The notes: generated by a model from the letters alone, not told the origin. A DNA stretch of 39,049 nt from Vicinamibacterales bacterium (GCA_036521515.1 DATDHP010000379.1:1-39049); one strand, 5' to 3'. Counted from the stretch's first letter, positions 1,827 to 38,793 are shown. Made by a program: numbers and translations.

Positions 1827-1981
1827 TAGCCGGCGGCAGGCAGCCTGCAGAGGCGGGCAGTTTGGCAGGCGGCCAACTCACTGGGCCGGCTGAAGCCGGG
1901 CCCTGCGACAGTCCCCGGAAACGGGCTGCCGGCTGCGAACCTGTCGGCTTCTGCCAGCCGCCCGCTGCCGGCTGCCAGCTA
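1827..1981. repeat. Low-complexity palindromic intergenic element (GGCAG/CTGCC arms around a central hairpin)
   Basis: Left arm tagccggcggcaggcagcctgcagaggcgggcagtttggcaggcggcc (1827-1874). Central hairpin gggccggc-tgaa-gccgggccc (1883-1903). Right arm gggctgccggctgcgaacctgtcggcttctgccagccgcccgctgccggctgccagcta (1923-1981). The arms are imperfect reverse complements. Confidence 0.55.
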
Positions 1982-2545
1982 TTTGTTCTGGATCGGCACC
2001 GTCCACATGTAAATCGTGCGGCCGTTGACGTTGGCCGTCTGTTCCGCCTTGATGTCGCCCATGTCGAACGCATGCGACACGACGCGCGTGCCGGGCTTCA
2101 GCTCCTTGTTCAGCTTGGGCAGCACTTTCAGGTTGAGCGACGGCAGCAGGTACAGCGTGACGACGGTGGCCTCGCTGATGTCGGTGGTGAACAGATCCTG
2201 GTTCAGGAACCGGACCCTGTCGCCGACGCCGGCCGTCTTCAGGTTCTCGGTGGCTTCGCGAATACGCTGCGGATCGATGTCGATGCCGACCCCGCGCGCC
2301 TTGTAGGTGCGCGCCGCGGTAATCGGGATGCGGCCATCGCCGGACCCGAGATCGTAAATGACGTCGTTCGGGCCAACCTTGGCCATCTTCAGCATCGCAT
2401 CGACGACTTCCTGCGGCGTCGGAACGAAAATGACGTCCGGCGACCGAAGCGGCGCCGCCGTCTGCTGCGCCGCCGAGGGCGCCGCCACTGCCGCGATGAT
2501 CGCGAACCCCAGAACGAGAGTGCGGAGTCTCATGATTCTCCTCAT
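1979..2545 (-). CDS. Class I SAM-dependent methyltransferase with N-terminal signal peptide
   Basis: Signal-like MRLRTLVLGFAIIAAVAAPSAAQQ. Motif I is VIYDLGSGDGRIPITAAR, followed by GVGIDIDP and LFTTDISEATVVTLYLLP. An alternative start ATG lies at 2533. Confidence 0.8.
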   Translation of the reverse strand: MRRIMRLRTLVLGFAIIAAVAAPSAAQQTAAPLRSPDVIFVPTPQEVVDAMLKMAKVGPNDVIYDLGSGDGRIPITAARTYKARGVGIDIDPQRIREATENLKTAGVGDRVRFLNQDLFTTDISEATVVTLYLLPSLNLKVLPKLNKELKPGTRVVSHAFDMGDIKAEQTANVNGRTIYMWTVPIQNK

Positions 2546-2687
2546 ATCGATAGTGGCCGGGCCTCGGGGAGCGGGGATCGCGGATCCGGGACCTGGGAGG
2601 CCCCGACATGCCCTTGGCGCCCGACCCGCCCCTGCTCGCCCCTCCTGAAAGCTCGCCGGGATTATATCCGGAGCCCCGTATTTTGCT

Positions 2688-2693
2688 TATGCT
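2688..2693 (+). promoter_or_regulatory. -10-like hexamer TATGCT exactly 6 nt upstream of the lysC ATG (leaderless-type promoter candidate)
   Basis: The sequence reads ttgctTATGCTgtcctcATG. No Shine-Dalgarno fits between the hexamer and the ATG. Confidence 0.35.
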
Positions 2694-2699
2694 GTCCTC

Positions 2700-3911
2700 A
2701 TGGCGGTCATAGTCCAGAAATACGGGGGCAGCAGCGTCGCCGACGTCCGGAAGCTCCGGCGGGTCGCCGAGCGCGTCATGCGCACCCAGGAACAGCGGCA
2801 CGACGTGGTCGTGGTCGTGTCCGCGATGGGCGACACTACCGACGATCTCCTCAGGATGGCCAAGCAGGTCTCGGCCAATCCCGATCGCCGCGAGCTCGAC
2901 ATGCTGCTCTCCGCGGGCGAGCGCATCTCGATGGCGCTGCTCTCGATGGCCATCCGCGAGCTGGGCGGCGACGCCATCAGCTTCACCGGCAGCCAGTCCG
3001 GCATCATCACCAACGACCGGCACGTCGACGCGCGCATCATCGAGGTGCGCCCGTTCCGCGTGCAGGACGAGCTCGCGCGCGGCAACATCGTCGTGATCGC
3101 CGGTTACCAGGGCGTGTCCTACAAGAAGGAGGTCACGACACTGGGCCGCGGCGGCAGCGACACGACGGCGGTCGCGATGGCCGCGGCGCTCGACGCAGAG
3201 TACTGTGAGATCTGCTCGGACGTTGATGGCGTCTATTCGGCCGACCCGCGCGTCGTCCCGGCGGCGCGGCGCATCGGCACCCTCTCCTACGAAGAGACGC
3301 AGGAGATGGCCGAAGCGGGCGCGAAGGTGCTGAACGCGCAGGCGGTGGAGTTTGCCAAGGAGAAGGGGATCGCCATTTACGCGCGCGCGACGAGCGGGCC
3401 GCTGCCCGGCCCGGATCCGTCGAGCGACGGCACCGTCGTACGCAAGAGCCCGCCGCGCCTGCCGGGCACGGTCGTTGGCGTCGCGAGCGAACGCGACATC
3501 ATCATGCTGGAGGGCGACACGCGTCCCGCGGATCTGCTCACCCTGCTCGACGAGCGCGGCGTGGCCGGCAAGCAGCTCCACGTCTTTTCCGACAGGACGA
3601 CGGTGGCCATCTCGCGCGAGAACCTGCACGACGAGGATCGGCTGCGCGCCGCGCTGGAGACGCGACTGGGCGGCCGCGCTCGCCTCGTCGACGGCCTCGC
3701 GGCGGTCAGCGTGGTCGGCGCCGGCATCAACGCCACCTACGCGAACGTACGCGCCGGATCCGAGACGCTCGCCGGCCTTGGGATTACGCCCGCCGGCACC
3801 GCGACGTCCTCCTTCCGCATCACGTGGATGATCCCGCGCGACCGCATCAACGACGCCGTGCGCGCCCTCCACGAGCGCTTCATCGAGTCGCAGCAGGCAT
3901 TGCTTCCCTAG
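2700..3911 (+). CDS. lysC: Aspartate kinase (403 aa, LysC-type with C-terminal ACT domains)
   Basis: [28 protein letters not shown] and [16 protein letters not shown], followed by an ACT-like C-terminal half. Confidence 0.92.
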
Positions 3912-3934
3912 CCGGCCCATCGGGCGCCCGGAGC

Positions 3935-3968
3935 CGCCCCACTCGCCCTACGCGCCCCACTCGCCCTA
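3935..3968. repeat. 16-bp direct repeat cgccccactcgcccta x2 in the lysC-to-M2-peptidase spacer
   Basis: Copies at 3935-3950 and 3953-3968 (period 18). The second copy abuts and overlaps the TATCAT hexamer at 3967-3972. Confidence 0.8.
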
Positions 3969-3972
3969 TCAT
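3967..3972 (+). promoter_or_regulatory. -10-like hexamer TATCAT exactly 6 nt upstream of the M2 peptidase ATG
   Basis: The sequence reads cccTATCATgccggtATG, with no SD. Confidence 0.35.
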
Positions 3973-3978
3973 GCCGGT

Positions 3979-5805: not shown

Positions 5806-5891
5806 TGGACTCCCCTCAGGTCTTCGATCTTCGGTGACTACGGGCCGAGGACTATCGGAGACCGTGGACCGTAGACCGGACCGGAGACCGA

Positions 5892-6386
5892 ATGCCGGGG
5901 GCGATCGACATTGCGCTGATCGAAGACTGGGAGCAGCTGCGACCGATCCTGCTCCCGTTCCTCGTCCGCGTTGGCGCCGCCGCGGTGTGCGGCGCGGTGA
6001 TCGGCCTCGAGCGCGAATTGAAGGGAAAGCCGGCCGGATTCAGGACGAACATCCTGATCTGCCTCGGCTCGGCGATCTACATGACCGTCGGGTTGCTGCT
6101 CGTCCGCACCAGCGGCGGCGACTTCGACCCGACGCGCATCGCCGCACAGGTCGTGACCGGCATCGGCTTCCTCGGCGCGGGCTGCATCCTGCAGGCGGGC
6201 AAGCGTGTCACCGGGCTGACCTCCGCCGCCACCATCTGGGTGGTGGCCAGCATCGGCCTCGTGGCCGGTGCCGGCTTCCCGCTGCTGGCGTTCATCTCGT
6301 CGTGGATGGTGGTGATTACGCTCGCCGCGCTTGGCACGATCGAAAAGCGCTATCTCGATCCCGAGAAGTCCGATGATTCGCCCTGA
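5892..6386 (+). CDS. MgtC/SapB family membrane protein
   Basis: AVIGLERELKGKPAGFRTNILICLGSAIYM and GIGFLGAGCIL are MgtC family signatures. The protein is 164 aa with about 4-5 TM segments. Confidence 0.85.
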   Translation: MPGAIDIALIEDWEQLRPILLPFLVRVGAAAVCGAVIGLERELKGKPAGFRTNILICLGSAIYMTVGLLLVRTSGGDFDPTRIAAQVVTGIGFLGAGCILQAGKRVTGLTSAATIWVVASIGLVAGAGFPLLAFISSWMVVITLAALGTIEKRYLDPEKSDDSP

Positions 6387-6387
6387 T

Positions 6388-6559
6388 CATCGTTGATTAT
6401 CGATCTTTGATTGTTGAATGGTTGTTGATTGTTGAATGGTGAATATCGATTCTCGTTGTCGATTGTCGATTGTCGATCCTCAATTCAACGTTTCGTCAAT
6501 CGAATCAACAATCAACAATCAACAACGAATCAATAATCAAGAATCAGAAATCAACGATG
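6388..6559. repeat. AT-rich TTGATTG/CAATCAA palindromic element, copy 1
   Basis: Perfect 11-bp termini: catcgttgatt (6388-6398) and aatcaacgatg (6549-6559). Internal arms are ttgattgttgaatggttgttgattgttgaatgg versus caatcaacaatcaacaatcaacaacgaatc. My hand count gives roughly 36% G+C, against GC-rich flanks. It lies between the convergent mgtC-family and nuclease genes. Confidence 0.9.
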
Positions 6560-6561
6560 TT

Positions 6562-9500
6562 CTATTGCCGCGGCACGGTCACCGTCGCGTGCGCGGTTGA
6601 GGTGCCGCCGGCTTCATCGGTTGCCGAAATCGTGATGGTGTAGATGCGGCCGTCTCCACGACGCGAGCGCTCCGCACGCAGCAGGACGTCGTGCGGACCA
6701 AGCACGATCCAGTCCGGCGCCGTCAGCCCGGCGAGCCCCTGACCAGCACCCAGCACCGGCTCGTCGCTCGTGACCCTGAGCGCGGAGGTCGCCAGACCGC
6801 ATGCGTCGCTCGCCGTGTAGCTCACCGCCACCGGCACCATCCGGTGGGACGGGAACAGCAGCTGCGAGCGGCTGACGGACACGTCGGTGATGGCGGGCGC
6901 CGGATTGGCCACCTCGATCGACGCAGTGGCCATGTTGTTGGTCGTGTCGGCATCCGCCGTGTCGGATTCGATCGCGACGGGAACCGCGAGGAGCGTGGCA
7001 TTGGCGACCGTGCAGCTGAGCAGGGCGGTGATATCCAGCGTGACGCTCTGGCCAGCGCCCAGGGTTCCGGTCTGACACGTGACTGTTCCACCAAGCGTCG
7101 AGCAGGCCCACCCGGCAGGTAGCGTCGCGCTCTGGAAGGTCAGGCCCGGCGGCAGCACCGCCGACACGCGCACGTTGGTCGCACCCTCGCCGTCGTTGCC
7201 GGCCACCACCTGCAGCGTCACCGCGCTACCCGCCACGGCGGGTGACGAGGCTGTCGCCGCGACACCAACGTCGGCGCGCGGGCGGAAATAGCCGACAGCG
7301 GCATCGTGGTCCGAGATGCGCGTCGTCACGGTGAAATCCGCTTCGAACGACTCGGGGAAGTCGGCGTTGTTGCGCGCGTACGCGAACAGCGTCAGGTGAT
7401 CGCGCATACGCGCGTTGATGAGCATGTGATCGAGCACCTGCGCCGAGCCTTCGAAGACGTACGAGTAGCGAAATGGTGGCGGCAGCAGGTCCGCGAGATC
7501 GAACAACGTGTGGAGCCAGCGGTCGACGCTCGGCTCCGTGACCTGGTCCGGCGGCGCGGGCGTTCCCTTCAACGTTCCGATCACGTCGACCAGCCCGTCG
7601 TTGAACTCGAACGCGTTCATGTCGCCGAGCACGACGAGGTTCTCGTCGATGTGCGCGGCGATCAGGTCGGCGAGGTCCTCGGCCTGCAAACGGCGTTTCT
7701 CGCGAACCCTTGCGCCAACCGTCAATCCGGTGGCACCGATCAGCTCGTGGCTGTTGACGTCGATCAGCGACCGCAAATGGTTGAGGATCACCGTCACCGC
7801 CGTCCCCGTGTCAATGACGCGCGCTTCGAGAATGAACGGCGGACGATCGTGGAGCAGATCGGTACTCCCGGCGAAGTCGAACGTCTTGCCGCGGTAAACC
7901 TGCTCGGTGCCGAGCACGTCGATCCGGGCACGGTTCACCAGGTAGCCGATGTTCTGCTCGAAGCCCGTGGATTGGCCGTCGCCGTCCTCGAGATATGCCT
8001 CATACGAGGTGCCTGCGGCGGCGTTCACGAGCGCGGCGAGTTGCTGGAGATCGTCGAGATCGCCGACTTCGATGGCACCCAGCACGTCTGGCGTCGCGAG
8101 AACCTCCACGATCACGCGAGCGGCCTTCTGCATGCGCTCCGCGAAATTCGGCGTGCCGTCGCGGAAGTTCTCGAGGTTGAGCGAGGCGATGGTGAACTCG
8201 CCGGCTATGGCGGCGCGCACGGGCGACGGCAGGCGGCCGCCGGCGGCGGTGGCCGAGGCATCGAGCACGACGCGGTAGTTGTCGAACGCGTAGTCGAGCG
8301 GCCCGAAGACGTTATGCACCGTGACTGGCGCGAAGAACGCGCCGGCAGCCAGATTGAGCGGGAACCGTTGATCCACCGTGTTCGACGGGGTCACCGTGAA
8401 CCGTGCATCATCGCTGTCGAGCATGACGCGCTCGAAATTGCCGTCGAATCGCGGCACCGTCGCCGGCGCCTCGCCCGGCAGCGTCTCTGCGATGTCCACG
8501 CCCGGTTGGCGGAAGGGACGCGCCACGCCGGAGATCACCGCGGAGAGCTCCCCGAATCCGTTCGTTGGAGCGACCACCTCCATCACAGGGGCTCCCACGA
8601 GCATGCCTTCGAACGACTCGAACTGCTCCTCCCGGCTTTCGAAGATCACGACGTCCGGCGGAGGCAGCAGCGTGGCGAGATCGAGCGGCGCGGGAAGCGC
8701 ATGGCCCGACGAAAGCGTCTCGATTGCGGCCCCGGTTATTTCGGTCAATGTTCCCGGCTGCACCGCGGTGCTGCCCTTGAATTCCGCGACACGTCCGGTC
8801 ACGCGCACTTCGTCGCCGAGCTGTACGTTCTGCGGCGGCACGGTGCCCGTGAACACGAACACTCCCTCGGACGTCTCCGGCCGGCCATCGTCAGCGCCGT
8901 CGGGTGTCTGGATGAAGAACCCGTTCGTCTTCCGCGTCGTGACGATGCCGGTGGTAACGACGTCCAGGCCGACAAACGGCGAACCGGGGCCATCACCCTG
9001 CAGCTCGTGGATGGTCGTCGGCGTCGGATCCGGCGGGATCACGCCGCCATTCCGCGGATTGGGCGTCGCGACGACGAAGTCAGTGCCATTCTCGTCGGTG
9101 TCCACGTTGCCCGGGGTTCGGACCACGGCGGTCGTGTTGCTCGGAGCCTGCGTGGGCTGCTGCCCTTCGAAGAAGTTGGCGCCCCCGTAACCGACCAGGT
9201 CGATGATTCGGGCCAGTGCCGCCGGGTCGCATGGCGTCGAGCCGCCGTTGCAGCCCAGCGTGTCGGTGCCCGTGACGAGCGCGACCTTGCCCGCGGTCGC
9301 GCTCATGGGGATCGGGTCGTTGTCGATGTGGTCGGGAGTGGGCAGCGGGCTGCCAACAGCTGCGTTGCTGGCCTCCTGGACGAGGAAATACGCACCCGGC
9401 CCCAGGGTCACGGCGGGCAGCTCCGTGCGCTGCGTGCTGCTGCTCCCGAAATTGGCCGCACCCGTGGCGCTCGTGTACTGGATGGAGAGACCGTCCAGCG

Positions 9501-9702: not shown

Positions 9703-9814
9703 GGCCTTCCCTCGAGTTAACGAGTGGAGGCCAGTAGTTGTAACAGACAGGAAGGGCTGGCGTCGCAGAATCTGCGCGACGGCCGGCGGAAATACAACGC
9801 TCTGTGCCCAGCCC

Positions 9815-9854
9815 GGGCCGGCTGAAGTACGTAGGGGCCGGCTTCAGCCGGCCC
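9815..9854 (-). terminator. GC hairpin downstream of the HTH gene (gggccggc-ttca-gccggccc, with an alternative longer pairing)
   Basis: Perfect 8-bp stem and 4-nt loop at 9835-9854, beginning 11 nt after the TAA at 9866-9868. Alternative arms are gggccggctgaag (9815-9827) and cttcagccggccc (9842-9854). No U-tract. The core ccggctgaagccgg is related to the REP-like units. Confidence 0.4.
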
Positions 9855-9865
9855 GTGGAAGATGT

Positions 9866-12998: not shown

Positions 12999-13017
12999 TT
13001 CTACGACCTCGACCCAT

Positions 13018-13165
13018 TATCGATTGGGGATTCTCGAATCTTGATTCGTTGTTGATTCTCGATTGTTGATTGTTGGGCTGCCGAATCGACTCGGCCATAA
13101 CTCAGCAGTCGCCAATCAACAATCAACAACGATTCAACAATCGAAGATCAGAAATCAAGAATCGA
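13018..13165. repeat. AT-rich TTGATTG/CAATCAA palindromic element, copy 2
   Basis: Left arm cgattggggattctcgaatcttgattcgttgttgattctcgattgttgattgttggg. Right arm ccaatcaacaatcaacaacgattcaacaatcgaagatcagaaatcaagaatcgac. It shares the ttgttgattgttgatt and gaatcagaaatcaa-type strings with 6388-6559. Confidence 0.85.
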
Positions 13166-14572
13166 CTAAGACCGCTCGAGGTGAAACGCCTCGTGCAGCG
13201 CGCGCACCGCGGCCGGCGCCTCGCGTTCGGTGACGACGAGCGAGATGTTGCGCTCAGACGATCCCTGTGAGATGGCGATGACGTTGATGTTCGCCGAACC
13301 GAGCGCGCCGAACACGGTCGCCGCGATCCCTGGCGTGCCGCGCATGCGATCGCCCACCGCGGCCACGATCGCGACCGACTGCTCCGCGGCGATCTCCTCG
13401 ATGTGCCCCCGCATCAACTCGATCTCGAGCGCGCGGCGCAGCGCCGTCAGCACGCGCGGCGCTTCCGACTCGTTGATGACGAAACAGATGTTGTTCTCTG
13501 ACGACGCCTGCGAAATCATCAGCACGTTGGCCTGCTCTTCGGCCACGACGTCGAACGCCTTTGCCGCAATGCCGGGGATGCCCTGCATGCCGGTGCCGCT
13601 GATCGCGATGAGCGCCACCTTGCGGATGGACGTCACCGCCTTCACGCCGCTGGCCGACGGGTCGCCTTCCACGCTGACGCGCGTCCCGGGATGATCGGGG
13701 TTGAAGCTGTTGAGGATGCGCACCGGGATGCGCTGGCGGAACGCGGGAAGAATCGTCTTGTAGTGCAGGACCTTTGCTCCGTAGTACGCCAGCTCCGACG
13801 CCTCGCTGTAAGAGATCTCGGCAAGCGTCCGCGCTTCCGGGACTTCCGCCGGATTGGCGGTCATGACGCCGTCCACGTCCGTCCAGATCCAGACTTCATC
13901 CGCGTCGACGGCCGCGCCGACGATCGACGCCGAATAGTCCGACCCGCCGCGTCCGAGCGTCGTCAGCACGCCGTCCTCCGTGGCGCCGATGAAGCCGGTA
14001 ATCACCGGGATCTCGCCCGCCGCCATCATCGGCTCGAGCCGCGCGCGCGTCTTGACGCGCGTGTCCGCCATCCGAGGCTCGGCCTCGCCGAACTGATCCG
14101 TCGTCACGATGAGCTCTGTGGCGTCCACCGCCTGGGACACAGGCCCTCTGGCCGCAATCGCCGCTGAGAGCAGCGGCGCGGTGAGCATCTCGCCGGTGCC
14201 CGAAATCGCGTCGAGCAGGCGCGGCGTGAGCTCGTGCACCATCGACAGCCCGAAGCAGAGCTTCTCGAATCGATCGAGGCGCTTCTGCAGCGAGTCGAGG
14301 ACGGCGGCATGGCGCGCCCGATCGCTCCCGATCAGCGTGTCGGCCACGACCTTGTGCCGGTCGAACAGATGGTGGCGCACCGATGCGTCCCACTGCCCTT
14401 CCGACGCGCGCCGCGCCGCGTGTATCAACGTGTCGGTGACCTTGCTCATCGCGGAGGTCACCACCGCCACCTCGTGGCCCCTGGAGGCCGTGGCCACCGC
14501 GAGCTCCGCGGCCTGCGCAATACGCTCGGCGGAACCGACGGACGTGCCACCGAACTTCATGATGATTCTCAT
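13166..14572 (-). CDS. Aspartate kinase, second paralog (468 aa, long monofunctional class)
   Basis: MRIIMKFGGTSVGS, VAVVTSAMSKVTDTL and LGRGGSDYSASIVGAAV, with two ACT-like regions at the C-terminus. Confidence 0.9.
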   Translation of the reverse strand: MRIIMKFGGTSVGSAERIAQAAELAVATASRGHEVAVVTSAMSKVTDTLIHAARRASEGQWDASVRHHLFDRHKVVADTLIGSDRARHAAVLDSLQKRLDRFEKLCFGLSMVHELTPRLLDAISGTGEMLTAPLLSAAIAARGPVSQAVDATELIVTTDQFGEAEPRMADTRVKTRARLEPMMAAGEIPVITGFIGATEDGVLTTLGRGGSDYSASIVGAAVDADEVWIWTDVDGVMTANPAEVPEARTLAEISYSEASELAYYGAKVLHYKTILPAFRQRIPVRILNSFNPDHPGTRVSVEGDPSASGVKAVTSIRKVALIAISGTGMQGIPGIAAKAFDVVAEEQANVLMISQASSENNICFVINESEAPRVLTALRRALEIELMRGHIEEIAAEQSVAIVAAVGDRMRGTPGIAATVFGALGSANINVIAISQGSSERNISLVVTEREAPAAVRALHEAFHLERS

Positions 14573-14673
14573 CGGGCTTCGGATCTCATCGGGCTTCGGG
14601 CTCGGGCTTCGGTCACGACATCACACACCTGTGCGGTTGGAGGCAGCGGGCCCGAAGCCTGAAGCCTGGAGCC
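14571..14673. repeat. GGGCTTCG/CGAAGCCC low-complexity hairpin abutting the aspartokinase-2 start codon
   Basis: Arms atcgggcttcggatctcatcgggcttcgggctcgggcttcgg (14571-14612) and gggcccgaagcctgaagcctggagcc (14648-14673), separated by a unique 35-nt centre. Confidence 0.7.
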
Positions 14674-14680
14674 ACGAGCG

Positions 14681-17386: not shown

Positions 17387-17429
17387 CAAGGTCCGTATGA
17401 TAGACCGGGGGTGAGACCCCGCGGCCGAT

Positions 17430-17491
17430 CTTCCGGCTGAAGCCGGAAGCCACAGGTACTCAAAGTTGTGGCTTCCGCCTTCAGGCGGAAG
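17430..17491. repeat. Inverted pair of 25-nt REP-like units (BIME-like)
   Basis: Unit 1 is cttccggc-tgaa-gccggaag-ccaca (17430-17454). A 12-nt spacer follows. Unit 2 is tgtgg-cttccgcc-ttca-ggcggaag (17467-17491). Each unit is itself a perfect 8-bp hairpin. Confidence 0.9.
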
Positions 17492-17544
17492 CACGGCTAG
17501 CGGGGTCAAGCCCCTGTCCAAGTCGACTCGAGTTGGGGGTCCTT

Positions 17545-18480
17545 CTACGCCTTGCCGAACCGGCGCAGAAGCCACGTGCCGGCGAAAGCGGTCGCGGCCA
17601 CGCCCGACAGCATCCCCCAGTGGACGCCGCCAGACCGAATCGGGGGCGGGAGGACGATGACGCCCTGCTCATCCGTAACGGCCGGCTGGTTCACGTAACG
17701 CCCCCGCCGCGGGCGGACGCGATGATCGAACTCGCGCGCGATCTTCGCCAGGTCGGCCGGCAGGTGCTCCCCCCGGAGCGGACGCCCATGCCCGGAGGCA
17801 ACGAGGGTCGGCTTCAACAGCGCCAGCCGCTCGACGGACCGCCGGGCTTTGTCCCAGTCGATCGTGAAATAGGCCGGAGGCCCCCCAAGCTCCTGCCGCT
17901 GAGTCAACACGGAAAACACCGATTCGGGGCGAGTGGTGGTGATTGCGTCGCCGGCAATCAGCATGCGGTCCTCATCGCGCACCAGCGACACGTGACCCGG
18001 CGAATGTCCCGGTGTGTGCACCCAGCGCCAGCCCGGCATCCCCGGCACGTCTCCGCTTTCCGGCAGCGCATGCACGCGGTCGCCAAGGTCGATACCCTTC
18101 TCTGGAAACAGCGGGGACAGGCGCGCCATGAGCCCCTGCCCCACCGTCGGGTCGGGGGGCGGGTAGTCGGCGTGCCCGGTCAGGTACGGCAACTCGAGCG
18201 GATGCGCGTAAACCGGCACGTCCCAGACGCCGAGCAGCGGCTCGAGCGCCCCGACGTGATCGAAATGGCCGTGCGTGAGGACGATGCCCGCGGGGCGCGA
18301 CTCCGGGCCGTAACGCTCGGAGGCAACCTCGAGGATCTGCGCCGCACCGAGCGATAACCCCGCGTCCACGAGCGCCCACGGAGACCCTGGCGCTCCCACG
18401 AAGAACACGTTGGCGAAAGCGATGCGCAAGCGCGCCACGTCCGCCGTGACTGTCTCGATCTCATGACGTTCGAGATCCAT
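17545..18480 (-). CDS. MBL-fold metallo-hydrolase
   Basis: IVLTHGHFDHVGAL (HxHxDH), plus HTPGHSPGHVSL and ASGHG. ATG at 18480 (MDLERHEI); the track uses TTG at 18498. Confidence 0.85.
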   Translation of the reverse strand: MDLERHEIETVTADVARLRIAFANVFFVGAPGSPWALVDAGLSLGAAQILEVASERYGPESRPAGIVLTHGHFDHVGALEPLLGVWDVPVYAHPLELPYLTGHADYPPPDPTVGQGLMARLSPLFPEKGIDLGDRVHALPESGDVPGMPGWRWVHTPGHSPGHVSLVRDEDRMLIAGDAITTTRPESVFSVLTQRQELGGPPAYFTIDWDKARRSVERLALLKPTLVASGHGRPLRGEHLPADLAKIAREFDHRVRPRRGRYVNQPAVTDEQGVIVLPPPIRSGGVHWGMLSGVAATAFAGTWLLRRFGKA

Positions 18481-22485: not shown

Positions 22486-22564
22486 TCAACTCCCAACTCC
22501 CAAACTCCCACCAACTCCCAAGCTTCGCACAGCCCGACGTTGGGAGTTGGGCGTTGGGAGTTGA
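22486..22564. repeat. CTCCCAA/TTGGGAG low-complexity hairpin in a divergent spacer
   Basis: Arms tcaactcccaactcccaaactcccaccaactcccaa (22486-22521) and ttgggagttgggcgttgggagttga (22540-22564). It is followed by gcagcc..ccacacatatgtgg..ctgc, which overlaps the first in-frame ATG of the transpeptidase. Confidence 0.85.
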
Positions 22565-25280: not shown

Positions 25281-25545
25281 GTTCACACTTCCGGGTTCTC
25301 GGTTCGTGTTCAGGTTCGGTTCACGGTTCCGGGCTCGTGGTGCGTGGTTCGTCCCCGGCTACGCCGGGGAGGCGCCCCGATGAAGAACCGGGAACGCCGA
25401 ACCTCGAACCTCGAACCCCGAACCCCGAACCCCGAACCCCGAACCTCGAACCTCGAACCTCGAACCTGGAACCTCGAACCCCGAAGATCGAACCGCGAAC
25501 TGAACCTGAACACGAACAGAGAAGCGAGAACCGAGAAGCGTGAAC
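25281..25545. repeat. GTTCGG/CCGAAC long palindromic element, copy 1 (right arm expanded)
   Basis: Left terminus gttcacacttccgggttctcggttcgtgttcaggttc. Centre ccccggc-tac-gccgggg (25353-25369). The right arm is a run of cgaacc(t/c) units ending gaacctgaacacgaacagagaagcgagaaccgagaagcgtgaac. Confidence 0.9.
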
Positions 25546-27188: not shown

Positions 27189-27249
27189 CGGCCTCTGAGG
27201 CGCACGGGATTGCAGCCTGCCCCGCCTGAGCCGGAGGAATGCATGGCAT

Positions 27250-27375
27250 TTGAAACTCAAGCGGATACGCGACCAGGCGCTCGTCATTACCGGCGCGTCG
27301 AGCGGCATCGGCCTGACCACGGCCGAGATGGCGGCCGAGGAGGGCGCGCGCGTGGTGCTGAACTCGCGCGCCGGC
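27250..27375 (+). pseudogene. N-terminal stub (about 42 codons) of a short-chain dehydrogenase/reductase
   Basis: The frame reads KLKRIRDQALVITGASSGIGLTTAEMAAEEGARVVLNSRAG, the classic SDR TGxxxGIG Rossmann start. Similarity then ends and the frame runs into a REP-like unit and the next gene. Confidence 0.55.
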
Positions 27376-27452
27376 TTCCCGCCTCCGCCGAAGGCTCCGG
27401 CGAGGCTCGCCGAAGCGCGTCGCGCGCAAAGGCGGCAGCCGGCCCGCTCTCG

Positions 27453-27477
27453 TGTGGCTTCCGGCTTCAGCCGGAAG
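27453..27477. repeat. Solo 25-nt REP-like unit
   Basis: tgtggcttccggcttcagccggaag lies 15 nt upstream of the TIGR00300 ATG. Confidence 0.85.
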
Positions 27478-27491
27478 ATCGTACCGGTACA

Positions 27492-28718
27492 ATGTCGCTC
27501 ATGGCTGCCAGCGACACGATCGAGGCCGAAGGACACCTCATCGACTCGGGCCTCCTCTCCTGGATCTTCGACAAGATCATCGAGCAAAAGGCCTCATACG
27601 AAATCCTCCATTTCGATATCGGCCGCACCAACGACGACGTGTCCCGCATCGAGATGCGGATTACGGCACCCGATGCCCTGGCGCTTGACGAGCTGCTGCA
27701 GCAGCTCACCACGTTTGGCTGCCATGCCGTTCGCGAGCGCGACGCCCTCGTCAAGCCCGCCGAGAAGGACCGCTGCGTGCCCGACGATTTCTATTCCACG
27801 ACCAACCATCGCACGCACGTGCGGCTCGGCGGCCGCTGGGTCGAGGTCGACAAGCAGCGCATGGACGCCGTCATCGTGGCCGCCGGCAGCCGCGCCGTCT
27901 GCCGCAAGCTCCGTGACGTCAAGGCGGGCGAGCCGATCGTCTGCGGCCACGAGGGAATCAAGGTGACGCCGGAGTTCAAGGAGCGCGACCGGCACGGGTT
28001 CGCGTTCATGAGCAACGATGTCTCGTCGGAGCGCCGGGTGGAGGGCAGCGTTGCGCGCATCGCGACGATGATGCGCGAGGTCAAGAAGACCGGCGGCCGC
28101 ATCGCCGTCGTCGCCGGGCCCGTAGTCGTGCATACCGGCGGCGTCGAACATTTCTCGGAGCTCATCCGCCTCGGCTACGTGGACGTTGTCCTGGCGGGCA
28201 ACGCCCTGGCGGTCCACGATATCGAGTTCGCCCTCTCAGGCACGTCGCTGGGCATCGACCTCGCGGCCGGCGCGCCGGTCGAGCAGGGGCATCGCAACCA
28301 CATGGCCGCGATCAACACGGTCAACCGCGCCGGTGGGATCCGGCAGGCGGTCGAACGCGGAGTGCTGAGAAGCGGCGTCATGTACGAGTGTGTCAGGCAC
28401 GGGATCGATTACGTCCTCGCCGGCAGCATCCGTGATGACGGCCCGCTGCCGGACACGGTGATGGACCTCCTGGACGCGCAGGAGCGCTACGCGGAAGCAT
28501 TGTCCAGCGACGTCCACCTGGTGCTCATGCTGTCGTCGATGCTCCACAGCATCGGGGTGGGCAACATGCTGCCATCGTGGGTGCGCGTCGTGTGCGTGGA
28601 CATCAACCCCGCCGTGGTCACCAAGCTCAGCGATAGAGGTTCGACACAGACCTTGGGTGTCGTCACCGACGTCGGCTTGTTCCTCCATCGCCTCGCAGAG
28701 GCGCTGCGAGCGGACTGA
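27492..28718 (+). CDS. TIGR00300 / LOR-SDH conserved-region protein (homolog of archaeal-type ornithine cyclodeaminase)
   Basis: MSLMAASDTIEAEGHLIDSGLLSWIFDKIIE...ILHFDIGRTNDDVSRIEMRI...VVAGPVVVHTGG...VLAGNALAVHDIE...GHRNHMAAIN...YVLAGSIRDDGPLPD. About 408 aa from the ATG at 27492. The track ORF from 27210 is an upstream over-extension. Confidence 0.78.
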   Translation: MSLMAASDTIEAEGHLIDSGLLSWIFDKIIEQKASYEILHFDIGRTNDDVSRIEMRITAPDALALDELLQQLTTFGCHAVRERDALVKPAEKDRCVPDDFYSTTNHRTHVRLGGRWVEVDKQRMDAVIVAAGSRAVCRKLRDVKAGEPIVCGHEGIKVTPEFKERDRHGFAFMSNDVSSERRVEGSVARIATMMREVKKTGGRIAVVAGPVVVHTGGVEHFSELIRLGYVDVVLAGNALAVHDIEFALSGTSLGIDLAAGAPVEQGHRNHMAAINTVNRAGGIRQAVERGVLRSGVMYECVRHGIDYVLAGSIRDDGPLPDTVMDLLDAQERYAEALSSDVHLVLMLSSMLHSIGVGNMLPSWVRVVCVDINPAVVTKLSDRGSTQTLGVVTDVGLFLHRLAEALRAD

Positions 28719-28737
28719 ACCAAGTCTGAGCCAAATC

Positions 28738-29015
28738 GTTCACACTTCTCGGTTCTGCCTTCTCGGTTCGTGTTCAGGTTCACGTTCAGTTCCGGGTTCG
28801 GAGTTCGGAGTTCCAGTTCCGGGTTCGGGGTTCGGGGTTCGAGGTTCGGAGTTCGGAGTTCGGAGTTCCGAGTTCGGAGTTCGGAGTTCGGGCACCTCGA
28901 CCCAGCCGGAGGCCATGCGAGCCTTGAACCTCGAACCGGCGCCCCGAACTGCGAACCGCGAACCGCGAACCGAACTTGAACACGAACGGAGAAGCGAGAA
29001 CCGTGAAGCGGGAAC
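28738..29015. repeat. GTTCGG/CCGAAC long palindromic element, copy 2 (left arm expanded)
   Basis: Left terminus gttcacacttctcggttctgccttctcggttcgtgttcaggttc, followed by a run of (g)gttcgg/gagttcgg units. Unique centre near 28890-28923. Right terminus cttgaacacgaacggagaagcgagaaccgtgaagcgggaac. The termini closely match those of 25281-25545 in the same orientation. Confidence 0.9.
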
Positions 29016-29055
29016 GATATAGACTTAACTCCTCCCCGCCTCGGAGGCGTCCCCC

Positions 29056-30674: not shown

Positions 30675-30789
30675 TGATCCGTGCCGTCCGGGTCGCACGC
30701 TGCGAACGAGTCGAACGTTCCGCACCGTCCGAACGTCGAACGATCCGAACCACCCGATCGATTCGAACGATCCCAACGATTCATGAGAG

Positions 30790-31685: not shown

Positions 31686-31692
31686 CGGTCCG

Positions 31693-31780
31693 CCACGAAG
31701 GTCGGGCCACGAAGAGCACGAAGACGGTCTTGCCACAAAGGGTGCGGCGTCTTGTGCCCTTCGTGGCTGATTCTTCGTGG
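31693..31780. repeat. CCACGAAG/CTTCGTGG low-complexity hairpin between convergent genes
   Basis: Arms ccacgaaggtcgggccacgaagagcacgaagacg (31693-31726) and cgtcttgtgcccttcgtggctgattcttcgtgg (31748-31780). Confidence 0.85.
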
Positions 31781-32161
31781 CTACGCCGGCGGCCGGATCG
31801 ACAGCACGAAATCCCGGGCGGGATCGAGGTCTCCGACGTTCACCTCGGTCGTGTCCGGCTGCTTGCTCACGGTCTCGCCGCCCCGCATCTCCACCTCGAG
31901 CCGGTACGTGCCCGCCGGCACCTTGATCGTGTAACCGCCGTTGGTGGCGGTTGACGCCTCGAACCGCGCGCCCGAGGCGGTGTCGATCGCGATCACCTTC
32001 CGCGCGGACACCGGCGTTGTCCCGTCACCGGCGCTGACTCTGCCGGCAATCGTGCCCCCGACGCCTACCGGCTTCGGCCCGGCGTCCACGACGGGTCCGC
32101 GCGGCAGGCACGCCACGCTCAGCAGCAGAACCCCAGCCACGAGGGCTGATCCATTTCTCAT
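31781..32161 (-). CDS. Small lipoprotein with carboxypeptidase-regulatory-like (CarboxypepD_reg) beta-sandwich domain
   Basis: ATG at 32161 with GAGGGAG 5 nt upstream. Lipobox LLLSVAC. GTIAGRVSAGDGTTPVSARKVIAIDTASGARFEASTATNGGYTIKVPAGTYRLEV. The rest of track ORF 31781..33001 is an antisense artefact. Confidence 0.65.
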   Translation of the reverse strand: MRNGSALVAGVLLLSVACLPRGPVVDAGPKPVGVGGTIAGRVSAGDGTTPVSARKVIAIDTASGARFEASTATNGGYTIKVPAGTYRLEVEMRGGETVSKQPDTTEVNVGDLDPARDFVLSIRPPA

Positions 32162-32224: not shown

Positions 32225-33097
32225 GTGCATACGACACTGATCTCGACCGGGACGCTTGCCGCTCAGCTCGGCGGCGGCTGGGCTGTTGTCGACTGCCGCT
32301 ACGACCTCAAGGACGAGGCGTGGGGACGCCGCCAATACCTGGAGTCGCACATTCCCGGCGCCGTGTACGCCAGCCTTTCGCGCGACATGTCTACCGTCCC
32401 CGACGGGACGAACGGCCGCCATCCGCTTCCCTCGCCCGAGGCAATGACGCAGACCTTCAGCCGGCTCGGCATCGGCCCCGGTACGCAGGCCGTGCTCTAC
32501 GACCAGGACGACGGGCGATACGCCAGCCGGCTCTGGTGGATGCTGCGTTACATGGGGCACCAGGCAGCGGCCGTGCTCGATGGCGGCTGGGCGAAGTGGA
32601 CCCGAGAGGGCCGGCCGGGCCGCGGCGGGGAGGAGAAACGGTCCGCTGCCACGTTCGAAGGGACGCCGCAACCGGGCGCCCGCTTGCGCGTAGAGGAGGT
32701 GGAGAGGCTTCTCGGACGGCCCGACGCGCTGCTGGTGGACGCGCGCGCGCCGGAACGTTACGAAGGGCGCAACGAGACGATCGATCGCGCCGCCGGTCAC
32801 ATCCCCGGGGCGGCCAATCATTTCTATCAGTGGAACGTGGGCGCCGACGGCACGATGCGCCCGCCGGATCAGCTCCGGGCCCGGTTCGAACAGCTCCTGA
32901 GCGGCCGGCCCGCCAAGCAGGTCGTGATGTACTGCGGCTCCGGCGTCACCGCATGCCAGAACCTTCTTGCCATGGAGCACGCCGGCCTGCGCGGCGCGCA
33001 CCTCTACCCGGGCTCATGGTCGGAGTGGTCGAGCGATCCCGCGAGGCCGATCGAAACGGCTCAAGGCTCAAAGCTCAAGGCTCAAGGCACAACGTAA
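32225..33097 (+). CDS. sseA: Tandem-rhodanese sulfurtransferase (thiosulfate/3-mercaptopyruvate, SseA-like)
   Basis: YLESHIPGAVYASL, RLWWMLRYMGH, active-site loop MYCGSGVTAC, and YPGSWSEWS. An alternative ATG lies at 32192. The last 10 codons (AQGSKLKAQGTT) read into a heptamer repeat. Confidence 0.85.
   Translation: MHTTLISTGTLAAQLGGGWAVVDCRYDLKDEAWGRRQYLESHIPGAVYASLSRDMSTVPDGTNGRHPLPSPEAMTQTFSRLGIGPGTQAVLYDQDDGRYASRLWWMLRYMGHQAAAVLDGGWAKWTREGRPGRGGEEKRSAATFEGTPQPGARLRVEEVERLLGRPDALLVDARAPERYEGRNETIDRAAGHIPGAANHFYQWNVGADGTMRPPDQLRARFEQLLSGRPAKQVVMYCGSGVTACQNLLAMEHAGLRGAHLYPGSWSEWSSDPARPIETAQGSKLKAQGTT
33059..33088. repeat. Heptamer tandem repeat GCTCAA(G/A) x4.3
   Basis: gctcaag gctcaaa gctcaag gctcaag gc. 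It lies in the overlap of the two convergent ORF ends. Confidence 0.9.
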
Positions 33098-37608: not shown

Positions 37609-37618
37609 GGGCCCTCAC

Positions 37619-37648
37619 AGCGTAGCCACGGTGTTTCGGGAGTGTCAA
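37619..37648 (-). promoter_or_regulatory. Sigma70-type promoter TTGACA-N18-TACGCT, 10 nt upstream of the ATG at 37608
   Basis: The minus strand reads aacTTGACActcccgaaacaccgtggcTACGCTgtgagggcccATG. The -35 is a perfect consensus and the implied leader is only about 3 nt. Confidence 0.5.
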
Positions 37649-37721
37649 GTTCGAGAAGGGGTGTTCAAGAAAGCGAGTGGTCCCGGAACCAGAGCGTCCG
37701 AACATGTCGATCCCGGGCGGT

Positions 37722-37749
37722 CGTGATCCAGCGAACACGCGTGATCCAG
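37722..37749. promoter_or_regulatory. Direct repeat CGTGATCCAG x2 upstream of vapB (candidate antitoxin operator)
   Basis: Copies at 37722-37731 and 37740-37749 (period 18). Further GTGAT cores lie at 37766 and 37783, the last inside the -10-like element. Confidence 0.3.
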
Positions 37750-37782
37750 GCGAGCAGGGTGAACGGTGATGGCTTGTGCATG

Positions 37783-37791
37783 TGATATCGT
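37783..37791 (+). promoter_or_regulatory. Extended -10-like TGaTATCGT exactly 6 nt upstream of the vapB ATG
   Basis: The sequence reads catGTGATATCGTattttcATG, with no SD. The 11-mer and its spacing are identical to those at 19391-19401. Confidence 0.4.
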
Positions 37792-37797
37792 ATTTTC

Positions 37798-38109
37798 ATG
37801 GCAAAAGAGCCTGTTTCTGTGACACTCGGCCGCGAGAACCTGTTGTGGCTTCGCGGGCGCGCGGCGCGCAGCAAGCGGCGGAGCCTCAGCGACGCGCTCG
37901 ACGAGATCGTCACGGCCGCGCGTCTCGGCGGCCAAGTCGCAGGCTCGATCCGGTCGGTGGTGGGCACGGTGGACATCGCGGCAGACGACCCGGACCTGGA
38001 GCGCGCCGACCAGTATGTGCGCGGGGAGTTCGAGGCGTCGCTGTCGCGGCCACTCGTGGTGCACGAGGACAAAGGCCGATACGGAAAGAAGAAGTCCCGT
38101 CGTGGCTGA
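37798..38109 (+). CDS. Type II antitoxin, ribbon-helix-helix (VapB-like)
   Basis: The N-terminal beta-strand plus helices read VSVTLGRENLLWLRGRAARSKRRSLSDALDEIV. 103 aa. It overlaps the downstream PIN gene by 8 nt. Confidence 0.6.
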   Translation: MAKEPVSVTLGRENLLWLRGRAARSKRRSLSDALDEIVTAARLGGQVAGSIRSVVGTVDIAADDPDLERADQYVRGEFEASLSRPLVVHEDKGRYGKKKSRRG

Positions 38110-38506
38110 ACCGGCCGCCGTCACCGACACGCACGCGCTCGTGTTCCACGCGGCCGGCGGCGGTCGCCTCGGCCCGAAGGCGCGGGCGCATTTCGTCGCG
38201 GCCGAGCAGCGGGATGCCCTCGTCTACGTTCCTGTCGTCGTGATTTGGGAAGTCAGCCTGCTCGCGCGCGCCGTTCGCGTCAACCTGCATCGACCGGTGC
38301 GCGCGTTCTTCGACGACCTCTTCAGCAATCCCGCGTACCAGCCCCACGGCCTCGATGCCTCCCAGGTCTTCGATGCCGACGAGCTTCGGTTCACCCGCGA
38401 TCCCTTCGATGCGCTCGTCTGCGCGGCGGCGCGCGACCTGGGGCTGCCGCTCATGACGCGTGACGCCGCGATCGCGGCTGCCGGCGTCGTGCCGACGCTC
38501 TGGTAG
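38102..38506 (+). CDS. vapC: PIN-domain ribonuclease toxin VapC
   Basis: GTG start at 38102. The four acidic PIN positions are visible: VTDTHALV, VVIWEVSLL, RDPFDALV and LMTRD. Confidence 0.8.
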   Translation: MAEPAAVTDTHALVFHAAGGGRLGPKARAHFVAAEQRDALVYVPVVVIWEVSLLARAVRVNLHRPVRAFFDDLFSNPAYQPHGLDASQVFDADELRFTRDPFDALVCAAARDLGLPLMTRDAAIAAAGVVPTLW

Positions 38507-38513
38507 TTCTCAC

Positions 38514-38566
38514 CAACCAGCCGAGGGCTCTGCCCTTGATATCCCAGCAGAGCCCTCGGCTGGTTG
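38514..38566 (+). terminator. Perfect 20-bp stem / 13-nt loop hairpin 8 nt after the vapC stop
   Basis: caaccagccgagggctctgc (38514-38533) pairs with gcagagccctcggctggttg (38547-38566). No U-tract follows, so an intrinsic-terminator role is uncertain. Confidence 0.45.
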
Positions 38567-38581
38567 CCAGTATCTACTCCA

Positions 38582-38793
38582 CCCCAACGCGCAAAGTCCG
38601 CGCGTTGGGGGCCCCGGCCTGGCCGCGCTCCGCGCGGCTAGGACCGCTATGCGGTCAGACGCAACGAGTACGAAATTCGCGTTCCGGACCGCATAGCGGT
38701 CCAATGCACAACGCTCAATGCTCAATGACCAATGACAAACGCCGGAGGCAGGCTCGGCGGCATTGGGCGTTGGGCATTGGGCATTGAGCATTG
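38582..38793. repeat. Array of four further independent hairpins before mmsA
   Basis: ccccaacgcgc/gcgcgttgggg (38582-38610). gccgcgc/gcgcggc (38622-38638). ggaccgctatgcggtc/gaccgcatagcggtcc (38641-38702). CAATG/CATTG low-complexity arms (38702-38743 versus 38759-38793). Confidence 0.85.

Follow-up and report, generated by a model that had tools for sequence, protein, structure and literature searches.

Hairpin-forming intergenic repeats with heptamer-periodic arms in a Vicinamibacterales bacterium and its relatives

Why should the intergenic spacers of a single bacterial contig be filled, again and again, by long hairpins of one architecture but with a different reiterated motif at almost every site? 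The question is raised by a 39,049-nucleotide stretch of an uncultured soil bacterium of the Vicinamibacterales (Acidobacteriota; GCA_036521515.1, DATDHP010000379.1:1-39049), which we call the window in its whole length and in which an earlier note, made from the sequence alone, had listed nine main hairpin sites and attributed them to selection on structure combined with slippage-driven turnover of sequence. We favor a different reading, to which we assign a probability of roughly 0.6: that the hairpins are non-autonomous dispersed palindromic repeats, akin to the inverted doublets (REPINs) of repetitive extragenic palindromic (REP) sequences or to MITEs (miniature inverted-repeat transposable elements), forming many families of ~70-290-nt non-coding, nearly self-complementary elements, each family with its own conserved termini and an arm unit of ~7 nt, and that slippage remodels their heptamer-periodic arms. 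The families occur at many unrelated loci and in many species, with sharp boundaries and no target-site duplication; the elements lie in otherwise very short spacers and typically start a few bases from a stop codon; and orthologous spacers are filled, empty, or hold another family or a REP, while interior arrays change by whole units.

Long hairpins are present in the spacers of the window far beyond chance. An inverted-repeat scan by local-alignment dynamic programming (DP) similar to einverted (match +3, mismatch -4, gap -8, span at most 400) found 11 inverted repeats with a DP score of at least 54, compared with a mean of 0.05 in either 20 whole-window or 20 block-wise (100-nt blocks) dinucleotide shuffles. 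With genes mapped from Pfam matches and third-position G+C content (GC3), folding by RNAfold against 60 dinucleotide shuffles gave z-scores of -3.7 or below in 11 of the 18 spacers of at least 60 nt and in 1 of 36 length-matched coding segments, in DNA with 67% G+C throughout. All nine main sites of the earlier note contain significant inverted repeats, and its estimate that about half of the spacers are occupied agrees with the folding result. Two sites that it had offered as weaker hairpins did not survive, since 5815-5890 (z -1.7) and 30703-30782 (z -0.6) hold direct simple repeats only, and two strong hairpin spacers absent from its list, at 17403-17518 and 9814-9855, are of another, REP/REPIN type. 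The arms are head-to-tail tandem arrays, mostly of period 7 in Tandem Repeats Finder (TRF) (TCGATTG, AATCAAC, GAACCCC, AGTTCGG, GTTGGGA, and GGCATTG), and change in length by whole units, as heptanucleotide long simple sequence repeats (LSSRs) do. The motif length had been put at 5-9 nt; the unit is predominantly 7 nt rather than 5-9 nt at random, although one family, CACGAAG, does have a 9-nt period.

The same design recurs across the lineage. A protein-anchored scan with one genome per species yielded 79 related loci (here and below, loci carry L numbers), almost all from Vicinamibacterales or unclassified Acidobacteriota metagenome-assembled genomes (MAGs), with amino-acid identities of 74-89%; for aspartate kinase the best relatives reach 90%. 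An origin in Burkholderia, first suspected from the G+C content and the simple repeats, was rejected on the strength of these loci. The related loci (1.33 Mb) contain 96 inverted repeats with a DP score of at least 54, a density of 0.72 per 10 kb where the window has 2.8, and most of the strongest show the design described above. In a census of tandem arrays of at least four units over the window and 81 loci (1.40 Mb), period 7 accounts for 167 arrays, compared with 27, 18, 11, and 19 for periods 5, 6, 8, and 9; an inverted partner lies within 350 nt of 104 of the 167 heptamer arrays (62%), the other 63 being lone, and the arm period is 7 or 14 in 49 of 112 strong inverted repeats. The heptamers comprise 90 distinct units, which at 53% G+C fall below the genome (67%). 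Of their trinucleotides GAA/TTC shows the strongest enrichment (30 versus 16.4 expected, z 4.3), but it occurs in only a third of the units, and a universal heptamer core was therefore rejected. Four loci from other acidobacterial classes, a small sample, have almost no such repeats. There is also a longer repeat type with a ~22-nt unit containing TGTCGGTGCAAG, in hairpin and direct forms (L080 155-329 and 20259-20479; L060 12041-12794), so the palindromic repeats of the lineage are not limited to 7-nt units.

The earlier note had treated the motif as all but private to each locus, and it is on this point that the picture changes most: every motif of the window recurs as a family in other loci and species. 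The two GTTCGG elements of the window, which belong to the GTTCAC family, have ordered termini in common, as do the two TTGATTG elements, and copies in other species include GTTCAC in L045 and (twice) L059, TTGATTG in L054, CAACTCCCAA in L032 and L080, and CACGAAG in L006. Clustering of 179 inverted repeats produced 18 copies of AATTCAAAATGCAAA / AATTCAGAATGCAGA, 5 each of GTTCAC and GGTGGTTGG, 4 each of TTGATTG, CAACTCCCAA, AAATCCCAAA, and AACCACGAAG...CTTCGTGGTT, and 3 of CGTTCGGAT; REPIN types also recur, and in several families non-repetitive terminal sequence is conserved too. One inverted repeat, at L041 11350-11733 (138-nt non-repetitive arms, mid-contig), was left out of the clustering. 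Two others, L048 11115-11514 and L015 1-277, were rejected because they look like fold-back assembly artefacts at contig ends, with arms of 136-172 nt that are perfect in L015; they were possibly triggered by hairpin elements, and that of L048 holds the 3' end of an ArgZ-like gene in both orientations around a heptamer hairpin.

Dispersal is clearest for the GTTCAC family. A metagenome scan with a 20-nt block of its terminus matched at least 120 stretches, and 41 unique complete copies have in common an ordered terminus of ~45 nt, (Y)GTC-GTTCAC-R-CTTCT-nnn-TTCTC-nnn-TCTC-R-GTTCGTGTTCAGGTTC, together with its mirror image, around interiors of 17-190 nt. These ends are terminal inverted repeats of the MITE kind (GTCGTTCACRCTTCT... 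mirrored by ...AGAAGYGTGAACGAC), and similar ends are found in other families. The 204 flank segments of 128 GTTCAC elements fall into 170 tblastx clusters, the largest with four members, which amounts to more than 100 different contexts, so the dispersal is real and does not reflect one orthologous site sampled across species. The boundaries are sharp (GTC|GTTCAC...GTGAAC|GAC), and GTC, often (C/T)GTC, stands directly outside the element in about two thirds of copies. No target-site duplication was found in 37 copies, where flanking direct-repeat lengths equal those of randomly re-paired flanks. The other families have no common head tetranucleotide, and a terminal motif universal to all families was sought and not found, TCGTT occurring at the ends of two families only. 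In the GTTCAC flanks of L082-L161 the left side is mildly A-rich and the right side T-rich (e.g., ...GTGAACGACGGTTTT in L082, L142, and L161), a hint either that the consensus is longer and includes A/T tracts or that insertion has a preference.

Orthologous spacers are occupied erratically. Throughout the order, the genes around the ArgZ-like gene keep their arrangement, and L080 (a 1.1-Mb ENA contig) and L081 are syntenic with the window. The divergent YkuD spacer carries CAACTCCCAA in both the window and L080, and other spacers differ: the convergent EEP spacer has CACAGAG arms with a REPIN centre in the window and CAACTCCCAA arms with a REP-like centre in L080; the desaturase-kinase spacer has a GTTCAC element in the window and a hairpin of TGTCGGTGCAAG units in L080; and the MBL-M14 spacer has a REPIN in the window and heptamer-armed hairpins of GGTTCC in L080 and of CAGTGGG in L081. 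The element between M14 and aspartate kinase is matched by an empty 19-nt spacer in L080 and a one-armed relative in L081, and downstream of aspartate kinase the window, L080, and L081 carry TTGATTG, CGCGGAG, and GATCTGA, respectively. Over more species, the desaturase-kinase spacer holds an inverted repeat with a score of at least 45 in 17 of 61 (at least 10 of the AATTCAAAATGCAAA family and 3 of an AAAGGTC family), and other orthologous spacer types are occupied in 0-30% of species, empty ones being typically 20-90 nt and many under 40 nt. After the M48 stop codon, 7 of 65 loci have the CACGAAG family and others have CGTTCGG, CCCAAAT, GGTGGTTGG, or REP-like hairpins; in many of the 65 the next gene begins within a few tens of bases. 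In the closest relative, L001, a ~20-nt spacer with no element follows the ArgZ-like gene, where the window has a 284-nt element. The proposal that the motif changes while the hairpin persists thus stands for several spacers, which keep a hairpin with a different motif, but falls for the majority, which are empty. Patchy presence, replacement, and occasional persistence make up the pattern that dispersed selfish repeats, rather than an indispensable structural signal, would be expected to leave.

What is conserved within the elements also argues against structure as the primary target of selection. In 22 GTTCAC copies with both arms in register, each column proves to be invariant or else hypervariable, and the invariant ones are TTC cores repeated every 7 nt, with GAA as their mirror image. 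Where columns vary, the arms of a single element differ at 7.14 positions per 31 nt, compared with 7.93 for re-paired arms, and 0.85% of 10,000 re-pairings reach the observed value. Given these invariant cores and the near-random concordance of the arms, conservation in this family is mainly on a periodic sequence code and not on pairing as such, which is the chief objection to the selection on structure claimed earlier. The gain and loss of units, by contrast with that claim, is directly seen: L009 9920-9987 and L016 2176-2236 are the same element, exactly one heptamer apart in one arm, and the unit number of interior arrays varies widely between copies and between the two arms. Shared families, near-random arm covariation, and unreliable persistence of the hairpin suggest that gain, loss, and replacement of dispersed families together with slippage explain the turnover better than in-place drift under structural constraint.

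The alternative that survives best, although we consider it unlikely, is that the hairpins are selected by the host at the RNA or DNA level, whether as terminators that lack a U-tract, as protection for 3' ends, or as processing sites, with structure kept at each locus while slippage turns over the sequence. Their position lends it some weight. By crude GC3-based gene calls, 60 periodic-arm hairpins comprise 34 in tandem, 20 in convergent, and 6 in divergent spacers, against 276, 142, and 116 background junctions, so that all three contexts reported earlier do occur, with divergent spacers depleted about two-fold (6 of 60 elements versus 22% of junctions). Element ends lie close to the adjacent stop codon, at a median distance of 3 nt (n=74, interquartile range -2 to 12). 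Canonical terminators (stem plus T-tract) are not enriched in the window, a consensus scan giving 5 sites in 20 kb versus 8.8 expected, none at element cores and one overlapping the 6385 end, so another signal for termination or stabilisation is plausible. The arms are long for intrinsic terminators and mostly lack a T-tract, the exception being the centre that the AATTCAAA family conserves in related loci. At least nine species have, in their desaturase-to-kinase spacer, AATTCAA/TTGAATT arrays around a conserved stem, GGGGTGAA-loop-TTCACCCC, followed by a T-run and GTACG (L020 7479-7606, L034 4328-4455, L023 7408-7517, L028 8191-8315, L071 8138-8248, L033 8215-8315, L027 7694-7853, L066 7517-7678, and L005 4893-5008), and the stem contains compensatory substitutions (e.g., GGAGGTGAAAA/TTTTCACCTC); it looks like a true bidirectional terminator embedded in the repeat. 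Host selection fits less well with the rest of the evidence. In-place drift cannot yield families whose conserved non-repetitive termini appear in more than 100 unrelated contexts, the arms covary at variable positions at close to the random level, some elements lie in divergent promoter regions, and in other species the orthologous spacers are for the most part very short and without an element, which shows that the genes can do without the hairpin.

Several observations nonetheless weigh against dispersed repeats, and some of them favor host selection. The search for a transposase or autonomous partner bearing the termini of the elements found none; in the 1.96 Mb of loci searched, inverted copies 450-4000 nt apart enclose ordinary genes (PaiB-like, SDR, hydrolase, and SHMT). 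The empty spacer of L001 and the filled one at 28735-29018 are too diverged to be aligned base by base, so insertion is not directly seen. Dispersal is quantified for one family only, the other families resting on 3-18 copies. Both position and motif are kept across species for CAACTCCCAA at the YkuD spacer, AATTCAAAATGCAAA in the desaturase-kinase spacer (at least 10 species), and CACGAAG after M48 (7 species), and this persistence is no less well accounted for by vertical inheritance under constraint, and so by a host function, than by mobility. Within the elements of the AATTCAAA family lies a conserved terminator-like GGGGTGAA...TTCACCCCTTTT stem, whose compensatory changes imply that some elements are probably used as terminators. 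The evidence from strand bias bears on both readings. In 42 tandem-context hairpins the sense strand has more G.T than A.C mismatches (73 versus 42, binomial p = 0.005), an excess that is inflated by orthologous, non-independent copies, is absent from the window's own seven tandem-context elements, and could be explained by a transcription-associated (C-to-T) mutation bias of the same direction; these 42 also fold more stably as sense-strand RNA, by a mean of 3.3 kcal/mol (Wilcoxon p = 0.003). The excess and the stabler sense fold fit transcription through the elements with some tolerance or selection at the RNA level, and so count both for dispersed repeats that are tolerated in transcripts and for host selection.

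If the elements are dispersed repeats, as we think probable, new copies would arise by a transposition-like process acting in trans. The enzyme may be of the single-strand, hairpin-recognising HUH/Y1 type (RAYT/TIRYT-like), which we consider more likely than a DDE transposase because of the lack of target duplications, the hairpin shape, the (C/T)GTC outside GTTCAC, and the coexisting REPs and REPINs. The Pfam-based gene map places no transposase gene in the window, and no RAYT (Y1/HUH) gene either. The periodic cores (TTC every 7 nt, mirrored GAA) could provide a recognition register for the mobilising enzyme or for a host protein, and the strong heptamer slippage bias of the lineage would expand and contract the arms after insertion. 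Co-transcription with the upstream gene would produce long hairpins in the 3' untranslated region, which are presumably tolerated, some having probably been co-opted as terminators or RNA-end protectors. A bolder version, which we regard as quite unlikely, is that the heptamer palindromes constitute an unrecognised superfamily of self-propagating hairpin elements whose code, a short core every 7 nt on both arms (TTC...GAA), is read by an oligomeric single-strand DNA- or RNA-binding or HUH-type protein, TRAP/HutP-like, with new families arising by a change of core. Were that so, it would represent a new mobilisation and recognition system, and would provide a mechanistic account of the intergenic heptamer excess in Xanthomonas, Burkholderia, cyanobacteria, and Acidobacteriota.

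Local origin without any mobility is very unlikely. Slippage-grown heptamer arrays beside a GC-rich hairpin or REP could be copied inverted by fold-back or template-switch synthesis, and the apparent families would then reflect a limited set of slippage-prone motifs. The strong heptamer bias, the 63 of 167 arrays that are lone and possibly precursors, the observed gain and loss of units, and the perfect GC-rich or REP-like centres of many elements (1885-1905; 21215-21287; L080 4277-4407; L081 1983-2110) are all in keeping with such an origin, but it leaves unexplained the sharp common boundaries of GTTCAC elements and the fact that in more than 100 contexts the diverged, non-identical heptamers of the 45-nt termini keep one order, and recent inverted copies of an arm should agree at variable positions, which they barely do; terminal conservation weighs heavily against it for the GTTCAC, TTGATTG, CACGAAG, and CAACTCCCAA families. 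Least probable of all are arrays of double-stranded DNA binding sites for a host protein (in nucleoid organisation, supercoiling barriers, or regulation), with the mirrored cores as symmetric multi-site operators and the hairpin as a by-product, for although conservation is on periodic sequence cores rather than pairing, GAA/TTC is enriched, three heptamers make 21 bp or about two helical turns (TRF super-periods of 14 and 21 nt occur), and enterobacterial REP/BIME elements, which bind gyrase and IHF, offer a precedent, a single protein is implausible for at least 90 different units in many unrelated families, no conserved neighbouring regulator gene was seen, promoter-containing divergent spacers are depleted, the opposite of what operators would show, and occupancy at orthologous sites is erratic.

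The closest precedent for dispersed repeats of this form is in Xanthomonas, where intergenic GGGAATC heptamer repeats (GGGGAYT in Nostoc) occur in many cases as convergent inverted pairs (Rehm et al., 2015; PMC4692102). Each Xanthomonas genome has 70-75 cases of two close arrays on opposite strands with stem-loop potential; the arrays show a strong intergenic excess, tend strongly to lie within 50 nt of a stop codon or to overlap it, are under-represented between divergent genes, and differ in unit number between related species without a change of type (single or inverted pair) (PMC4692102). The elements described here are likewise intergenic 7-nt tandem arrays, on opposite strands close together (104 of 167 paired) and near stops (median 3 nt). 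However, they belong to the phylum Acidobacteriota and form bounded families with conserved non-repetitive termini, which Rehm et al. do not report. Whereas in Xanthomonas there is essentially one G-rich motif, which Rehm et al. interpreted through G-quadruplex formation, here there are at least 90 units with 53% G+C, most of which lack GGG and cannot form a G-quadruplex. The G-tract pattern of Xanthomonas (GGGNATC, with a preference for four units) is not seen in window motifs such as TTGATTG, GTTCGGN, CAACTCC, and CATTGNG.

REPINs were reportedly described by Bertels and Rainey in 2011 as inverted REP doublets mobilised by RAYTs. Our elements resemble REPs and REPINs in being extragenic, palindromic, multi-copy, mostly downstream of genes, without target-site duplication, and with several families per genome, and in their erratic presence among related species, with different elements at one spacer. 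REPs fall into GTAG- and CGTC-tagged superfamilies and are mobilised by RAYT Y1/HUH transposases, and a distinct acidobacterial group of Y1 transposases is flanked by long terminal inverted repeats (Di Nocera et al., 2013; PMC3733652). In many GTTCAC copies the start, (C/T)GTC|GTTCAC, is similar to the CGTC tag. REP units, however, are 20-40 nt with GC-rich 5-13-bp stems, compared with 25-100-nt imperfect arms of ~7-nt units (53% versus 67% G+C) here, and our families have no universal head tetranucleotide and no RAYT gene within the window. Bacterial MITEs (e.g., Correia/NEMIS, ERIC/IRU, RUP, and Nezha) are similarly small, non-coding, multi-copy, and intergenic, with terminal inverted repeats, long hairpins when transcribed, presence/absence polymorphism among relatives, and many copies in unrelated contexts. 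They differ in that the elements here have no target-site duplication (37 GTTCAC copies) and no related autonomous insertion sequence that could be found in the 1.96 Mb of loci, and are self-complementary as a whole, not only at 15-30-nt ends, with periodic, slippage-variable arms.

Heptamer repeats of a third kind are direct arrays. The cyanobacterial STRR heptamers were reportedly described by Mazel et al. in 1990. As far as two later papers summarise it, Mrazek et al. (2007) found an excess of heptanucleotide LSSRs in prokaryotes (PMC4679880; PMC4692102), and other examples are the TAACTGA repeats of Beggiatoaceae (PMC4679880) and the 6-8-nt microsatellites of Burkholderia (PMC6749651); MacGregor noted one inverted case among 170 repeat sets (PMC4679880). 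The likeness lies in a 7-nt excess in the intergenic DNA of particular lineages, for which polymerase slippage with a ~7-nt footprint has been proposed, but these LSSR, STRR, Beggiatoaceae, and Burkholderia repeats are not typically hairpins and lack families with conserved termini. What sets the present elements apart from these precedents is the number of unrelated motifs, their grouping into bounded families whose termini are conserved, conservation at periodic cores, and the phylum. CRISPR arrays, retrons, integron attC sites, and IS200/IS605 ends were considered and rejected, the window having no spacer-repeat architecture and no reverse transcriptase, integrase, or TnpA/TnpB gene; no tRNA or tmRNA genes were found in it. 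In line with the earlier impression that the hairpins match no described family, there is no Rfam 15 match at the gathering threshold, and at E-values up to 1 the only matches are sub-threshold ones to eukaryotic microRNA-precursor models, which are generic hairpins. The literature searched contained no report of elements like these from Acidobacteria or Vicinamibacteria.

The order Vicinamibacterales ranks among the most abundant groups of soil bacteria, and its genetics is almost uncharacterised. If the hairpins are dispersed repeats, a sizeable share of intergenic DNA in this order consists of dozens of hairpin-repeat families, occupying about half of the longer spacers here, and combines REP/MITE-like dispersal, microsatellite-like slippage, and a 7-nt register, which are usually studied apart. 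The system bears on what reads or creates heptamers, a puzzle since 2007, on how hairpin repeats spread without target duplications, and on what serves as terminator or RNA stabiliser in GC-rich genomes lacking classical terminators. For the annotation of soil metagenomes, the elements lie at the two MAG fold-back artefacts (L015 and L048), may break assemblies more widely, and mimic microRNA- or small-RNA-like hairpins.

The window has two GTTCAC copies. Copy 1 (25281-25545, z -10.2), which separates the fatty-acid desaturase stop from the start of the histidine kinase gene, has 69-nt arms at 25282-25537 (DP 90 at 25296-25523; 15.6 TRF copies of GAACCCC), termini TCGTTCACACTTC...GAGAAGCGTGAAC, heptamer arrays of GTTCGNN / GAACCNC inside, and a GC hairpin, TCCCCGGCTACGCCGGGGA, at its centre. 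Copy 2 (28735-29018, DP 126, z -10.0), downstream of the ArgZ-like gene, has arms of about 100 nt (47 nt in the repeat search) and 15 TRF copies of AGTTCGG. The ArgZ-like gene itself is a 502-aa open reading frame (ORF) with a TTG start, and because most orthologues align only from residue ~98 (27210-27500 being the N-terminus), the annotated N-terminal extension is either variable or not translated in every species. Several species have a hairpin element just upstream of that alignment start (e.g., L009 9920-9987).

TTGATTG/CAATCAA copy A (6385-6562; arms 58-67 nt, DP 104, z -7.1, TRF period 7) occupies the entire convergent spacer from the MgtC stop (6386) to the minus-strand LTD/EEP stop (6562) and clusters with copy B (13016-13162), L054, and L064. 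Copy B (60-nt arms, DP 68, z -6.3) is flanked by the aspartate kinase stop (13166) and the start of the OEP gene, and the two copies have ordered blocks in common (GATTTCTGAT ... GAATCGTTGTTGATTGTTGATTG). At the other end of the kinase gene, between the M14 peptidase stop and the aspartate kinase start, is a weaker GGGCTTCG/CGAAGCCC hairpin with TRF arrays (14571-14677), whose DP score is only 36 (14589-14677), yet whose RNAfold z is -5.2 on the plus strand. An exact 17-nt duplication (TCTCATCGGGCTTCGGA, plus strand) spans the start-codon region of aspartate kinase at 14567-14599, at the edge of this element, and creates a short upstream ATG...TGA mini-ORF on the coding strand.

The CAACTCCCAA/TTGGGAGTTG hairpin (22486-22564, DP 57, z -5.9) lies in the divergent spacer between a gene of unknown function (minus strand) and the YkuD gene (plus strand); its motif is also found in the orthologous spacer of L080 (3007-3140) and at further sites in L080, L032, L033, and L130. 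The 9-nt-period CACGAAG/CTTCGTG hairpin (31692-31781, 28-nt arms, DP 54) starts 7 nt past the M48 peptidase stop, and the family, with termini AACCACGAAG...CTTCGTGGTT, directly follows M48 stops in L052, L006, L021, L031, L045, and L070. Of the sites with direct repeats only, the GGACCG-type repeat (5856-5890, TRF period 12) has no inverted repeat of DP 36 or more, and the CGAACGATC-type repeat (30703-30780, period 9/25) is in the divergent GntR/M48 promoter region, whose orthologous spacers carry hairpins in L066, L028, L049, L041, and L033.

A separate REP/REPIN-like class, built on CTTCCGGCTGAAGCCGGAAGCCACA / TGTGGCTTCCGCCTTCAGGCGGAAG, occurs at 17403-17518, 21215-21287, 9814-9855, and the centre of 1828-1973. 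Its members are short GC-rich hairpins (CCGGCTGAAGCCGG / GCCTTCAGGC) and inverted doublets with a CCACA/TGTGG junction; CCGGCTGAAGCCGG-type sites are present in 29 loci, and GTAG-tagged REP relatives occur in L039, L041, and L059. The first three sites have the short GC-rich REP unit or inverted doublet that the heptamer-armed class lacks. The doublet at 17403-17518 (DP 81, z -8.8), two short GC-rich hairpins in inverted orientation, has extra complementary flanks, lies between the MBL stop and the M14 start, and clusters with 21215-21287 and L001 16958-17083. A single hairpin, GGGCCGGCTGAAG...CTTCAGCCGGCCC, is found at 9814-9855 downstream of the HTH_25 gene (DP 42, spacer z -4.5). In two window cases a REP-like hairpin forms the centre of a heptamer-armed one, and was either nested in it or acted as its seed. 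One is the convergent spacer at 21162-21348 (z -8.6), where 26-nt outer arms of the CACAGAGGCACAGA type, 81% complementary, enclose a REPIN-like doublet, the inner inverted repeat 21215-21287 (DP 54). The other is the irregular GGCAG/CTGCC-rich hairpin at 1828-1973 (46-nt arms, DP 61, z -4.2), which fills the spacer downstream of a methyltransferase gene (1979-2545, minus strand) and has a perfect REP-like hairpin, GGGCCGGCTGAAGCCGGGCCC, at its centre (1885-1905).

Four successive hairpins (38514-38566, 38585-38612, 38641-38702, and 38709-38793) share one 300-nt spacer after a VapC-like ORF with a Pfam PIN match (38015-38506), which together with the region upstream (~37780-38015) is probably a toxin-antitoxin pair. 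The first, directly past the PIN stop (38506), is a perfect 20-bp stem with a 13-nt loop and non-repetitive arms (DP 60). The last is a CAATG(NN)/(NN)CATTG heptamer-armed hairpin (36-nt arms, DP 63 at 38716-38793, five TRF copies of GGCATTG), and its motif recurs in L023, L038, L115, and L130.

Three further repeats were noted. In L013, a 1307-bp inverted duplication of 100% identity (13678-14984 and 16942-18248), 2 kb apart, is probably two copies of an insertion sequence. A 27-nt tandem repeat (1488-1564, 2.9 copies, 96% matches) lies where the minus-strand ORFs 1-1504 and 1446-1796 overlap, and may be an in-frame coding repeat or may mark a frameshift in the first gene of the window. A lone heptamer array without an inverted partner, GGCTCAA in five copies (33058-33092), lies at the 3' end of the rhodanese gene and overlaps a convergent 149-aa ORF.

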